From Truepera sp. (GTDB lineage: Bacteria; Deinococcota; Deinococci; Deinococcales; Trueperaceae), in the NCBI GenBank assembly GCA_965218435.1, contig CBDCKW010000009.1, forward strand, positions 576,001 to 640,000: a DNA stretch of 64,000 nt, read 5' to 3'. Positions 2 through 8,750 of this stretch are shown here, in pieces. Numbering within the stretch: position 1 is the stretch's first letter; every line of letters begins with the position of its first letter. The position numbers and the translations under genes are program-made. Under the pieces are notes generated by a model, which was not told where the DNA came from, did not search any database, and was given only the letters and a program-made list of their open reading frames with translations.

Positions 2-1987
2 ATCATCGTTTACGAAGATGACGAGAAGAAGAAACCTTTTATGATTGTCGAAACTAAAAAGCCTGACGTATCAGACGCGGCTTTTAGTGAAGCCGTCAAT
101 CAAGGCTTTAGCTATGCCAACGCCTTAAGTGCCGATTTTGTCTGGGTAACATCGGGACTCAAATCCGAAGCTTACGACGCGAAGTCTTTCTACCCGATGG
201 AGCGCGAGAGCAACCTCGTTGCTGATATTCCGAGCTATGGCGCAAAGGTCGCGCGTTACAAATACGCCGTGGGCGGCGTAGGTGGTAAAGAACTCGAGAA
301 AGTCAGCGAGGATGTCCTGACCCGCAAATTCAAACAAGCCCATGACGCGCTCTGGGCAGGTGGAAAGCGTAATCCGACTCAAGCATTTGACGAACTCGAC
401 AAGCTCATCTTTTGCAAGCTTTGGGACGAACGTATAGACCGTGACGACGGTGAACCCTATGACTTTCAGGTATTTACCGGCGAAGACCCGGACGACCTTT
501 TGAAACGCGTAAGAAAGCTGTACGAAATAGGACGAGAAAAAGACCCTGAAGTCTTTCAAGAAGATGTTCGTTTGACAGGCAACGAACTCCAGACCGTTGT
601 GGGCTACCTCGCCGAGATAGATTTGGGCGCAACTGATCTGGACAGTAAAGGACGCGCCTTTGAAGAGTTTATGGACGACTTTTTTAGGGGTGAGTTCGGT
701 CAATACTTTACGCCGCGCCCGATTGTTAAGTTTATCGTAGATGTTTTGCCTATCACTAACGAGTCTCACGTGCTCGATACCTCATGCGGCAGTGGCGGGT
801 TTTTGCTTTATGCGTTAGACAAGGTACGTCGTGAAGCACAAGAAAAACTTGATAGAGGTCAGTTCAGGCAACGCAACATTCACCCCCAAACGCAGATGTA
901 CAACTATTGGCACGACTTCGCTGAAAAACGCCTTTTTGGGATTGAAATCTCGGAAATGATTGCCCGTACCGCCAAGATGAACATGATTATCCACGACGAC
1001 GGGCATACCAACGTCATAAGTTTCGACGGACTACAGTCTCCCGAACGGATGCGCAGCAAAACAGGCAATCAAGGTTTCAAAGAAAATCACTTCGACTTCA
1101 TCATTACGAACCCGCCCTTCGGCGCAAAAATCTTGTCGGATGAGCGCAGCTACATGCAAGATTATGACCTTGGCACACGCTACACTGACTGGATAGACGC
1201 TGAGCTAAAAGGCGAAGTTGTAACGACTCGCGACAGTCAAAGCTCTGAAGTGCTGTTTATCGAGCAGTGCCACCGCTTCTTAAAACCCAGCGGCATCCTC
1301 GCTATTGTCGTGCCGGACGGTATCTTGACGAACTCGAGCCTTCAGTACGTGCGTGACTGGATAGCTGAACACTACCGCATTTTGGGTGTCGTCTCGATGC
1401 CGCAAACCGCCTTTACCGCGACCGGCGCAGGCGTCAAAAGCTCCGTGATGTTTTTGCAAAAGTACAGCGACACAGAGACCGCGCACATTCAAAGCACCAA
1501 AGAAGCTGTGCAGAACAGCCTATTTGGGCAAGACGAGTACGGCCCCGCGATTGCGAGACTGGAAGAAGAGAAAAACCGCGTATTGAAACGCGGCGACGAT
1601 ACGATGAGGCAACTCGAGGAAGCACACGAAGATCACCTCGAGGCGCTTGGCGAGGTAGACAAGGCTGCTGAACGCACCCTCAAACGCGAGCTGCGCGAGA
1701 AAATCAAAGCACACCAGCGCACCGACGCCCACAAAGAGTGGCGCAAAGCCACTACCGACAGCTACAACGAACGCATCAACGCCATTAAAGAGAGCTTGGC
1801 AAGTACCTTTGCCGAAGAGGTTCAGGCCCAGCTGAGCGACTACCCTATCTTTATGGCGATTGCCGAAGATATAGGTTATGACGCGACGGGAAGAGCGACC
1901 GGCAAAAGCGAGTTGAAACCGATAATAGAAGAGCTGAGCCGGTTCATAGGTGCTGTACAAGAGGGACGTGATAATTTTTTCGCATAA
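2..1987 (+). CDS. hsdM: Restriction-modification protein: N-terminal HsdR_N-like PD-(D/E)xK nuclease fragment fused to an HsdM-like N6-adenine methyltransferase; 5'-truncated by the window edge
   Basis: Frame open from base 2 (IIVYEDDEKKKPFMIVETKK, ExK nuclease-like); motifs GQYFTPR, VLDTSCGSGGFL, FDFIITNPPFG, MAIAEDIGYDATGR; long charged coiled-coil near the C-terminus. Confidence 0.9.
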   Translation: MIVYEDDEKKKPFMIVETKKPDVSDAAFSEAVNQGFSYANALSADFVWVTSGLKSEAYDAKSFYPMERESNLVADIPSYGAKVARYKYAVGGVGGKELEKVSEDVLTRKFKQAHDALWAGGKRNPTQAFDELDKLIFCKLWDERIDRDDGEPYDFQVFTGEDPDDLLKRVRKLYEIGREKDPEVFQEDVRLTGNELQTVVGYLAEIDLGATDLDSKGRAFEEFMDDFFRGEFGQYFTPRPIVKFIVDVLPITNESHVLDTSCGSGGFLLYALDKVRREAQEKLDRGQFRQRNIHPQTQMYNYWHDFAEKRLFGIEISEMIARTAKMNMIIHDDGHTNVISFDGLQSPERMRSKTGNQGFKENHFDFIITNPPFGAKILSDERSYMQDYDLGTRYTDWIDAELKGEVVTTRDSQSSEVLFIEQCHRFLKPSGILAIVVPDGILTNSSLQYVRDWIAEHYRILGVVSMPQTAFTATGAGVKSSVMFLQKYSDTETAHIQSTKEAVQNSLFGQDEYGPAIARLEEEKNRVLKRGDDTMRQLEEAHEDHLEALGEVDKAAERTLKRELREKIKAHQRTDAHKEWRKATTDSYNERINAIKESLASTFAEEVQAQLSDYPIFMAIAEDIGYDATGRATGKSELKPIIEELSRFIGAVQEGRDNFFA

Positions 1988-2032
1988 GCCCCGGCGTAGA
2001 TAATCCAACTATATTTATATCTAGTTGGGGCT
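1975..2032 (+). promoter_or_regulatory. Candidate -1 programmed ribosomal frameshift signal joining hsdM to hsdS
   Basis: Heptamer T TTT TTC (1975-1981) in the hsdM frame; -1 frame is stop-free into hsdS; stem 1987-2002/2018-2032 starts 5 nt downstream; GAGGGA at 1961-1966. Confidence 0.7.
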
Positions 2033-3360
2033 TGGCAAAAGAAAGATTAGACCCTGAAATAGTTCTGTTCAATAGCAGAGCCACTAACTTTAACTATCCC
2101 GTTGAGAGATTGGCTACTTTCTTGTCGTCTCCTCCTCAATATGGAGCTAATGAAGCTGGCATCCTGAGACTCGATGATAGTGAACCCCGTTATATAAGGA
2201 TTACCGACATTGACGAGTATGGAAGTTTAGTTCCCGGTTTGGGAGTTACGGCAACAAACGTCGAGGAAAAATACTTTCTCAAAAATAACGACCTACTTTT
2301 TGCCAGAAGTGGCAACACTGTAGGCAAAAGCTATCTGCATAAATCGAGTGATAAGTCCCACGCGCATTTCTTCGCCGGGTATATGATTCGCTTCACTATT
2401 GATGCCGAAAAGATAAGTCCTGATTATGTTTTCGCCTTTACTCAGACTCGAGCCTATGCAGATTGGGTAAAGGCAGTACAGCGGGTGACAGGACAACCGA
2501 ACATCAATGCCGATGAATACAAGTCCCTACCTATTCCGCTTCCGCCCTCGAATGTACAAAACACAGTGATTGACCTTCTTGAAACAGCGTATAAAGTCAA
2601 AGCTAAGAAAGAGCAAGAAGCTGAGCGGTTACTCGAGTCTATTGACGGTGTGGTGCTCGAGGCTTTAGGCATCAACCTACCTGTTGAGGAAGAGGGGGGA
2701 CTCGAGGGACGAAAGTTCTTCCGTAGTTTCCGTGAGCTGAATGCTACAAGGCTTGATCCTTTCCCATATCAGCAACGTCGTATGCAAGCTATCCGAGCGA
2801 TTGATGAAGCTCACCTTCCCAAAAAACGTTTGCACGATGTTTTTCTGTTCCGTAAAGAAGTTGTTACACAAGCAGAAGGGTTGCCTTACATCGGACTGGA
2901 AAACGTTCGCTCAAACACAGGGGAATATATAAGCTCCAATGTGGAGAAGGAAACGTTTAATAGCGCCCTCCGCTTTTATAAGGGTGATATTTTGTTTCCA
3001 AAATTACGACCGTATCTGAACAAAGTACACCTAGCTTCGTTTGATGGGGTTTGTTCAACAGAGTTTCACGTCTTGACGGCAGCGAAAGGGCTCGAGGAGT
3101 ACCTAGCTGCATGTCTACGTTCTCGACTTATTGTCAACCAGACGTCTTGCCTAATGACTGGTAACACGCTCCCTAGGTTGCAAACTTCCGATGTGGAAAA
3201 CTTACTGATTCCTTTGCCGGATGAAACAGTTCAAAAAAACATTGGTGAAGAAGTTAGAGATGTTCAAAAACAGGTCAACCAGATTCGAGAGGAAGCAAGT
3301 CAAACAGTCGCCCAAGCCAAACAACAAGTTGAGCGGGTGATTCTTGGGGACGTAGCGTGA
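2032..3360 (+). CDS. hsdS: R-M specificity subunit with two target recognition domains (reading frame is open from 1975)
   Basis: TRD1 (QYGAN..RYIRITDID..DLLFARSGNTVGK..QPNINA), TRD2 (YIGLENV..GDILFPKLRPYLNKV..STEF..LPRL); repeated IPLP..Q helical spacers. Confidence 0.9.
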   Translation: MAKERLDPEIVLFNSRATNFNYPVERLATFLSSPPQYGANEAGILRLDDSEPRYIRITDIDEYGSLVPGLGVTATNVEEKYFLKNNDLLFARSGNTVGKSYLHKSSDKSHAHFFAGYMIRFTIDAEKISPDYVFAFTQTRAYADWVKAVQRVTGQPNINADEYKSLPIPLPPSNVQNTVIDLLETAYKVKAKKEQEAERLLESIDGVVLEALGINLPVEEEGGLEGRKFFRSFRELNATRLDPFPYQQRRMQAIRAIDEAHLPKKRLHDVFLFRKEVVTQAEGLPYIGLENVRSNTGEYISSNVEKETFNSALRFYKGDILFPKLRPYLNKVHLASFDGVCSTEFHVLTAAKGLEEYLAACLRSRLIVNQTSCLMTGNTLPRLQTSDVENLLIPLPDETVQKNIGEEVRDVQKQVNQIREEASQTVAQAKQQVERVILGDVA

Positions 3361-4202
3361 AAATCACGTATCAGGTTGGGTACAGAAGCGACCTGGACAG
3401 CGACGAAAGTTTTGACGACCTCTTGGCGAGCGAACTTCAAAGAGCCTTTGCCGATGAATACGAGGAGGTGAGTGAGGCGGATGTGTTCGACTACTTTCAG
3501 GTACATTACGAACATCCGCTCAACGAGGACGAATCGCTAATCGCTTTCGAGTTGGACATCCCTACCGAGAAAACGGAGATTCAGCAGGCACGGCTTATGG
3601 AGGATATACACCGGCGTATTAGAGCTATTGAAGGCGTCTTTGTATTCTTCAAGTTTCACGACGAAGGTCTTTTTGGTTCATTGCAGAAGCTCTACGCTGA
3701 AATCTTTGCGCTCGAGATGAAACTACGCGAAATTGCCACGCTGATCTTTGCCGATACCTACCGGGGCAACTACCTTGACCATATCCGAGAGACGAAGGTG
3801 AAACTCTCCAGCACAGAGCTTAACCAGGGCGGTAATAACAAAGAAACCAGACTGAAAAGCCGCTTTGAAAATGAGTTCTTCCATATTTCATTTAGCGATT
3901 ATCACAAGCTGCTCGAGCCGCGTGAGCTGAAAGAGCCAGACCTGCTAAACTTTGCATCTAAAGCGGAAACCTTTGAAGACTTCAGGGATTATGTCCGATA
4001 TAGGGGTGTGCAGAATGAATACTACCGTGACTTCTTCGCGTCAATTCGTCCACATATGGATGCTCTGGAAAAGGTTCGCAACTGTGTTGCTCATGGCCGG
4101 GTAGTATCTGAAAACGAATACCAAAACTTTGAAGTCGCCAAGGCTGCTGTTCAGGAGCTGATAGATAGCTTTTTCACCGGTCTACAACAGGAAGTTGAAT
4201 GA
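3357..4202 (+). CDS. HEPN-like (Swt1/Apea-type) putative RNase with acidic N-terminal domain
   Basis: E(MKLR) helix plus C-terminal RxxxxH motif KVRNCVAHG; GTG start overlaps the hsdS stop (GTGA). Confidence 0.65.
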   Translation: MKITYQVGYRSDLDSDESFDDLLASELQRAFADEYEEVSEADVFDYFQVHYEHPLNEDESLIAFELDIPTEKTEIQQARLMEDIHRRIRAIEGVFVFFKFHDEGLFGSLQKLYAEIFALEMKLREIATLIFADTYRGNYLDHIRETKVKLSSTELNQGGNNKETRLKSRFENEFFHISFSDYHKLLEPRELKEPDLLNFASKAETFEDFRDYVRYRGVQNEYYRDFFASIRPHMDALEKVRNCVAHGRVVSENEYQNFEVAKAAVQELIDSFFTGLQQEVE

Positions 4203-7675: not shown

Positions 7676-8750
7676 GGGGTGTGCATGACTAGCGTAAAGC
7701 CAACATGGTTTGTTTGAGACACAGTAAGTCACGACCCAGGCGAAGATTGAAGTAAGCAAGGAGTAAGTAGGCGAGCGCAGCCAAGGTCACGAGTGCTCTG
7801 ACATTGGCTAAGCCTTTAACGAGTAAATGTTCAAGTTTGAAGAGTGCCTTGAGACGACCTTGGAAAGGTTCGACAGTAGCTTTGCGCAAGGCGAAGACCT
7901 CTCTAACCTCAGGGTCGTTATAGAGTCGGGTGCGCTCACAACGGTCTTCGGGGGTGTTAGTTTTGACTTGAAGAGGGGCGATGAGGCTGATACCCCGCTC
8001 GTCGCAAGCGTCGTAACAAGGGGCTGTTCGTCATAGCCGCCGTCAGCTAAGACAAGGTTAGTGTCTTCGCTCAAGCTGGCGCTGAGTTCTCGGCTGAAGA
8101 CCTGAGCGTCTTTGACGTTAGCGGGATAGACACAGATGTTGCGTGGTAGCGGGGCAGTTGCGTCAGCATTGACGAGGCAGTGTAGGCGGTAGCCAAACAC
8201 CCACTCACCCTGCCCTGAAATACCCCAATGCGCTTCTTGGTCGATATTGCCACATGAGGGCAGCTTGCGGGCTTTCCTATCTTTACTGTGCCAGACATTG
8301 CCCTCAGCGTGCATTAAACTGGAGTCGGCACTCATGACGCTTGCCTCACCGATACCCGTTTCTATAAAGTGCTCGTGTAAGGTCGTCATCGCCTGCTGCA
8401 AGCCTTTAGGTATGCGCTTGAATCTGCGACTCAAGGTGGTGCGGTGGGGCAACTGATCGAGTCCCACTAGAGCAAGCACCTCAGGTCGCTCAAGTAAATG
8501 ATCATGCAGCGTCTTGAAGCCGCTGATGCCTTTGACGAGTGCATACAAAAACAGCTTGATTAGGCTGCTTTCTCCGTAGCTGTAACGGTCTAGCGTTTTA
8601 GGTAAATCCAGTTCATCAACCAGGCTCAAGTAGCTCTTCAGGTCTAGTGTTATCATTCTCCAATGCCTCCTTCATGGCGTTTTCGCTTTCTCCATTGTAG
8701 GAGGCTCTATCTTTATTCGGCTTTTCGTATCTTTATGTGCTCACCCCTCA
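7673..8750 (-). mobile_element. Insertion sequence, about 1.08 kb, DDE transposase (IS4/IS5/IS982-like)
   Basis: Terminal inverted repeats TGAGGGGTGTGCA (7673-7685) and TGCTCACCCCTCA (8738-8750), 12/13 match; encloses a transposase; no clear target-site duplication. Confidence 0.85.
7689..8656 (-). pseudogene. DDE transposase split by a frameshift near 8015-8025
   Basis: PHRTTLSRR, SADSS, FGYRLH, LADGGYD in the first frame; CYDACDERGISLIAP...RKATVEPFQGRLK in the second frame. Confidence 0.8.

Follow-up and report, generated by a model that had tools for sequence, protein, structure and literature searches.

A conserved −1 frameshift cassette very probably links RM to S in a BsaXI-like type IIB restriction-modification system of Truepera sp.

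In a 64,000-nt stretch of DNA from Truepera sp. (contig CBDCKW010000009.1, positions 576,001 to 640,000; hereafter the window), we analyzed the junction between two genes of a restriction-modification (R-M) system, one encoding a combined nuclease and methylase (RM) and the other a specificity subunit (S). In all likelihood, programmed −1 ribosomal frameshifting joins RM and S of this BsaXI-like type IIB system, giving both free RM and an RM-S fusion. The cassette of elements at the junction is real and very probably functional; its signal, the conservation of that signal, the missing S start codon and the enzyme family are established by the comparisons described below.

The 3′ part of the RM gene occupies positions 1–1987 of the forward strand, which also carries every other feature described here. 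Its reading frame ends AAT TTT TTC GCA TAA, with the stop codon at 1985–1987. The two Phe codons contain a slippery heptamer, T_TTT_TTC (1975–1981), in the X_XXY_YYZ phase that allows re-pairing. Immediately 5′ of the slip site the −1 frame is shut by TGA TAA (1969–1974); past these stops it is open up to 3360, and the S frame extends over 461 codons (1975–3360). A Shine-Dalgarno (SD)-like GAGGGA at 1961–1966, 9–14 nt 5′ of the heptamer, is a possible 5′ stimulator. On the 3′ side, the spacer GCATAA (1982–1987), which includes the RM stop codon, leads into a putative stimulatory hairpin with a G/C-rich base. Folding of 1987–2032 gave 15 pairs, two of them G-U, with one bulge (−19.2 kcal/mol), and the region 1982–2045 folded at −25 kcal/mol (z −4.67), with equal stability reached by 1 of 200 shuffles. 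The hairpin begins 5–6 nt after the heptamer, within the 4–10 nt spacing described for 3′ structures of −1 frameshift sites (PMC4066793). The first ATG, GTG or TTG in the S frame is the TTG at 2032–2034, which is located in the hairpin base and is taken as the S start by open reading frame (ORF) callers; ATG does not appear until 2383 (residue 137). The initial annotation had described the phased heptamer, the −1 frame closed before it and open into S, the 15-bp stem, the GAGGGA motif and the TTG at the stem base, and all of these were recovered at the same coordinates. It had also raised the possibility of a T7 run mis-assembled as T6. Two deep public contigs, possibly the source of this DNA, agree base for base across 1500–2500 with no indel, and the contigs read T6. 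The predicted transframe junction peptides are DNFFR and ISPGVDNPTIFISSWGLAK. By itself the heptamer is common, with 962 copies in the genome, so the case relies on the combination of elements and on their conservation.

The RM gene begins 254 nt 5′ of the window (G000:C9:575747) and its product is 746 aa long. A PD-(D/E)xK-type nuclease domain (HSDR_N_2) at the N terminus and an N6-adenine methylase domain (N6_Mtase) predict both activities in one chain, and residues E47, E48, D85, E102 and K104 and the NPPF motif are invariant in 39 aligned sequences. Among solved structures in PDB, the best match of the RM profile is RM.BsaXI (8w0p; E 1e-50). The S frame has two Methylase_S stretches and is HsdS-like with two target recognition domains (TRDs); its AlphaFold model (predicted local distance difference test, pLDDT, 91) has BsaXI S as its best Foldseek match (E 1.4e-16, template modeling score 0.60). 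A type I system (HsdR/M/S) was considered and rejected, as the methylase has its own nuclease domain and no HsdR-sized ORF was found within ∼5.7 kb upstream or 8 kb downstream of the locus, and the long HSDR_N genes of the genome are >170 kb distant. The sequence and model comparisons indicate that the locus is a BsaXI-like type IIB system of RM plus a two-TRD S, not type I. The initial annotation had labelled the upstream gene hsdM. This label does not hold, because the gene bears an N-terminal nuclease domain and encodes a 746-aa nuclease-methylase; the type IIB alternative, also offered there, fits. BsaXI itself is (RM)2S (PMC11997821).

Junctions were compared across 202 loci, made up of 6 from 364 genomes of the host phylum (the window included), the 80 top-ranking ones among 520 genome hits, the 80 top-ranking ones among 573 metagenome hits, and every one of the 36 viral hits. 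S was separate but adjacent in 117 of them and fused in 18; in 51 no adjacent S was found, in 10 RM was broken, and 6 were truncated by the contig end. One locus, L171, was placed by hand in the split set (118 loci), and L171 and L012 were placed by hand in the frameshift set (32 loci). An in-phase UUU-type heptamer with no ATG or GTG at the junction occurs in 28 of the split loci, and a start with no such heptamer in 84; of the other six, 3 have both and 3 have neither. This is a near mutual exclusion (Fisher p 2e-20, a value inflated by kinship). The heptamers of the 32 frameshift-type loci, all in phase, are C_CCT_TTT (15), T_TTT_TTC (11), T_TTT_TTT (5) and C_CCT_TTC (1). All four variants belong to the class H_HH.U_UU.Y, which is among the most efficient frameshift motifs in E. 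coli (PMC4066793). The codon usage of each gene predicts heptamers in 6.5 of 32 loci versus the 32 of 32 observed, a count that is partly circular. Six more frameshift-type loci were found among 20 additional loci (17 of them cyanobacterial) and one by a motif-first scan; stop, phase and spacing are identical in 39 frameshift-type loci from many assemblies. At the protein level, Pro/Phe-Phe stands 1–4 residues before the stop in 115 of the 120 best hits; of the other five, three are fusions and two do not have the motif.

The system is patchy, being present in 6 of the 364 genomes of the host's phylum. Named carriers of the frameshift-type junction belong to Pseudomonadota, Bacteroidota, Thermodesulfobacteriota, Balneolota and Chlorobiota, with more in the cyanobacterial searches and in the host phylum. 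Loci L013, L016 and L021 are from named isolates. On a FastTree phylogeny of 112 RM proteins, from which the last 15 aligned residues were dropped and proteins with <40% identity or no adjacent S were omitted except for L012, the frameshift label requires at least four changes. No match to a frameshift-type junction was found in the E. coli genomes searched, and plasmid and phage records, judged by annotation and one translation, gave distant or rearranged relatives alone and no further frameshift junction. One of these, on a Leisingera plasmid (NZ_CP109788.1, L319:3037-5280), encodes the methylase core of the RM family but no N-terminal nuclease, runs into an unrelated C-terminal part, and looks like a rearranged remnant. 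Many of the 51 loci without an adjacent S (for example L034, L038, L056 and L058) have another gene of 280–530 aa straight after RM.

The hairpin distinguishes the two classes of split loci. In the 65 nt 3′ of the heptamer, z was below −2 in 29 of 31 computable frameshift-type loci versus 9 of 84 start-bearing loci, and the usual starting point of the stem was 6 nt beyond the heptamer. When S codons were resampled synonymously, the mean z was −3.5, and in 25 of 31 loci two or fewer of 150 resamples were equally stable. Using an alignment of 31 rows, 81% of cells pair compared with 40–54% in slid controls, and two-sided changes occur in 13 of 17 stem pairs, which 0 of 500 shuffles reached; the consensus structure was drawn from the same 31 sequences, which favours it, and RNAalifold unaided kept 6 pairs. 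A relative ∼93% alike keeps the T6 run and has three changed stem bases, all still pairing. The hairpin was also considered as a transcription terminator and rejected, since it is not terminator-like (absent from the terminator listing). The SD-like motif, an optional element 6–17 nt upstream of such sites, is present in 26 of the 32 frameshift-type loci versus 13.5 expected from the amino acids. It is the weakest part of the cassette and may lend weak support; it could also be descended from the ribosome-binding site that serves S in the coupled relatives. The comparison of homologues that the initial annotation had proposed came out in its favour: start-less loci keep the phased heptamer and a covarying hairpin, and loci with an overlapping ATG or GTG have neither.

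The N terminus of S also places its coding frame upstream of the annotated start. Residues of the −1 frame following the heptamer align with the N termini of start-bearing S proteins, and F14, encoded 5′ of TTG 2032, is one of four residues invariant in 67 of 67 S sequences. The start-bearing S genes begin 19–22 residues before the position of TTG 2032 in 56 of 70 cases. S therefore cannot begin at this TTG, since F14 is invariant upstream and most start-bearing S genes begin earlier. A natural in-frame fusion, P0003 (1201 aa, 70% identical), is collinear with the predicted 1204-aa product at the junction. Together, F14 and the exclusivity of heptamer and start point to a conserved −1 coding frame that is unreachable otherwise.

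From these data we infer the slip itself, its efficiency and the assembly of RM with RM-S. A ribosome with Phe-tRNAs on UUU UUC would pause at the hairpin 5–6 nt downstream, perhaps assisted by 16S pairing at GAGGGA. Unshifted ribosomes would reach the stop one codon on and release free RM (746 aa), while a tandem slip of the two Phe-tRNAs by one base back would lead to read-through of S and yield RM-S (1204 aa). S would be made solely as RM-S, and RM-S with one free RM would be the equivalent of (RM)2S. Frameshift efficiency would set the 2:1 ratio of RM to S, and surplus RM may aid cutting, as in BcgI. An engineered EcoKI M-S fusion cuts only once M is added (PMC3510504), and extra A subunits activate BcgI (PMC3592470); because of these two precedents, an efficiency below 50% would still work.

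Fused genes of the family show a second type of junction. All 14 close in-frame fusions for which DNA was available (11 distinct junctions) have exactly nine T's at the same position, and the eight that were placed on the tree form one cyanobacterial clade. Loss of one T gives an immediate stop and gain of one T gives a stop three codons on. Twelve of the 14 are without a strong hairpin, and none has another T8 or A8 run in the 1.8 kb upstream. The T9 run is likely a reverse switch that would release free RM. This evidence is suggestive, not proof, because the chance of a T9 run from codon usage is 0.16–0.46 per locus and the loci are kin. Among fused proteins with a tail of two-TRD length, Phe-Phe is present at the junction in 41 of 44 distinct segments and missing in 3; among fusions with a tail of single-TRD length, two are without it and three of similar length have it. 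Ten distant fused viral loci have about one TRD each and no consistent run at the junction, which is weakly consistent with one RM per TRD. A further set of fused proteins, available as protein sequences only (P0140-P0143, P0145, P0147-P0150, P0154, P0156, P0185, P0199 and P0229), has Phe-Phe-x-(K/N/D/A)-(A/S)-Pro at the junction. In P0140-type fusions the RM stop could be lost and S placed in frame with heptamer and stem kept, that is, a frameshift in reverse. A search for AloI/TstI-like genes with the PADLOC model PDLC03624 was uninformative, with 0 of 364 genomes but also 0 of 14 controls matching. We suggest, tentatively, that for each S the family obtains two RM by three or more arrangements that can replace one another at a single junction, namely coupled RM and S, −1 frameshifting to RM and RM-S, and T9 fusions giving RM-S and RM; a fourth group may use the reversed frameshift.

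Several observations weigh against programmed frameshifting as the source of both chains, or against the strength of the case for it. The 32 of 32 heptamer count is partly circular because the heptamer served to define the class; this does not apply to the contrasts in start codons and hairpins. The p-values for contrasts among split loci overstate the evidence, since the loci are kin and are the top-ranked part of longer hit lists. Two loci, L171 and L173, have a heptamer plus an ATG overlapping the RM stop, and are possible intermediates between the coupled and frameshifted states. Hairpins are weak at L053 (z −0.8) and L173 (z −1.1), and the SD-like motif is missing in 6 of the 32 loci. Residues 1–20 of the S model are coil (pLDDT 66–72), so a structural need for this stretch is not supported by the model. 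Purified single-chain TstI is active as a homotetramer without free RM (PMC4027205), and free RM is therefore not required by every fused enzyme.

One alternative differs in purpose only: the frameshift would be real but low, keeping the S-containing active enzyme scarce for safe establishment after transfer. Efficiency of such motifs in E. coli depends on context, from 0.018% to 54% (PMC4066793), BsaXI RM and S could not be stably co-expressed in E. coli (PMC9159934), and the patchy distribution in the host phylum fits. However, the motif class is among the most efficient and the stem is strong, and the in-frame fusions keep a slip-prone run that would yield free RM, which points to a need for both chains. 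We consider this purpose rather doubtful. Slippage on the T run during transcription by RNA polymerase, or during DNA replication as phase variation, with the ribosome unshifted, would agree with the lengths of the run (T6 in the window, T7 in five relatives, T9 in cyanobacterial fusions) and with fused proteins P0122 and P0144, which read like the frameshift product, as an extra T would produce. Yet 16 of the 32 loci have C_CCT_TTY, with three or four T's at most, and the efficient polymerase slippage on record involves runs of 9 (PMC5009743). The conserved hairpin also lies on the 3′ side, in the path of an advancing ribosome, and four contig sets are without an indel; slippage of this kind is improbable.

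About equally improbable, or slightly more so, is that S is a separate protein made from TTG 2032, from ATA 1984 overlapping the RM stop or by reinitiation, with the hairpin controlling coupling. An ATG or GTG at the RM stop is indeed used by 84 related loci, and L171 and L173 have ATG where ATA 1984 lies. However, a start at TTG 2032 loses F14 and sits within the stem, ATA 1984 is CTA in a close relative and across the class mostly CTA, otherwise CTG, TTA or GTA, and 10 of the 32 loci have no ATG, GTG or TTG within 75 nt after the heptamer. Such a hairpin is also not a feature of start-bearing loci. Both ATA 1984 and TTG 2032 were rejected as S starts on codon variation at the ATA, F14 and the comparison of start positions. 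An assembly error or a decayed in-frame fusion (pseudogene) could be proposed, since in-frame fusions occur in the family and homopolymers are error-prone; it is in substance refuted by the shared phase, stop and spacing in 39 loci, the identity of the two deep contigs and the intactness of both frames.

BsaXI shares the order of genes, a combined nuclease and methylase first and an S with two TRDs second, and the RM alignment passes through its ‘knob’ region. BsaXI, however, makes RM (911 aa) and S (476 aa) as two chains, whereas here S is start-less and would be reached by frameshifting, and the 746-aa RM ends where BsaXI continues, into what would be its ‘paddle’ judging from length. AloI, CjeI, PpiI and TstI are single RM-S chains of ∼1200–1250 aa with two TRDs, comparable to the predicted 1204 aa; they are read in one frame, whereas the message at this locus would provide free RM as well. 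Such single-chain enzymes have a balance of 1 RM to 2 TRDs, one RM short per S, which has been called ‘a mystery’ (PMC3874165, PMC4081073). In the engineered EcoKI M-S (PMC3510504) the frame difference was removed, and the fusion works but needs additional M; it is a laboratory type I construct, and natural EcoKI relies on translational coupling. The H. pylori BcgI-like pairs HP1472/HP1471 and JHP1365/JHP1364 have start-less S genes that were interpreted as inactive (PMC3936762).

A mechanistic parallel is dnaX tau/gamma, in which a short and a long subunit of the same complex come from a single gene by means of the SD, heptamer and stem layout. In contrast to the U-rich Phe/Pro site here, E. 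coli dnaX, which encodes an unrelated protein, uses A_AAA_AAG, and here it is the long product that needs the shift. Two variants of dnaX recoding have been described (PMC5009743), and both layouts occur in the RM-S family. In one, a candidate reversed form, the stop directly follows the shift site. The other, which the T9 fusions resemble, is that of T. thermophilus, where both alternative frames are closed by stops and slippage over 9 bases yields the short product. The literature searched contained no description of programmed frameshifting between RM and S, with unseen supplements, REBASE and paywalled papers lying outside it. Word look-ups in the available text of sources including PMC5009743 (first 300,000 characters), PMC4066793, PMC3711429, PMC3874165, PMC4081073, PMC11997821 and bioRxiv 10.1101/2025.10.02.679949 gave no RM-S frameshift; the main text of PMC4066793 had 0 matches for ‘restriction’ or ‘methyl’, its supplement of 69 clusters lying outside the look-up. 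As far as the literature searched, this is very probably a known recoding mechanism in an apparently undescribed place. To our knowledge, few programmed −1 frameshifts are conserved in bacterial cellular genes.

A third gene (3357–4202) overlaps the S stop by GTGA and encodes a HEPN-like protein with an RxxxxH motif (RNCVAH). Its look-alikes in the Atlas are Apea-like/Swt1 HEPN clusters, and it has a weak match to PADLOC PDC-M34B; by this resemblance it is possibly a back-up RNase beside the R-M system. Near the R-M locus, ORF 7808–8656 may be a transposase. A scan for the cassette as a DNA motif fetched 80 loci from viral contigs (L227-L306), of which 49 have T_TTT_TTC, 48 of these being of one protein family. 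In eight pairs and one downstream frame that were scanned (for example L269:2499-2560), a Mu-type portal gene precedes a −1-frame MuF gene, and toxin-like tails are present in some; the same signal layout here joins an unrelated gene pair.

If frameshifting operates at this junction, gene callers truncate S and overlook a 1204-aa protein in many genomes, and some R-M systems called broken may be active. A ribosomal switch would then set the amount of active defence enzyme. The question of how one catalytic chain can serve two recognition domains in a fused type IIB enzyme would also become directly testable. Should the arrangement be general, both the type IIB enzymes known as ‘single-chain’ and the S genes of H. 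pylori described as start-less and ‘inactive’ would be recoded two-product genes, which would answer the stoichiometry puzzle.

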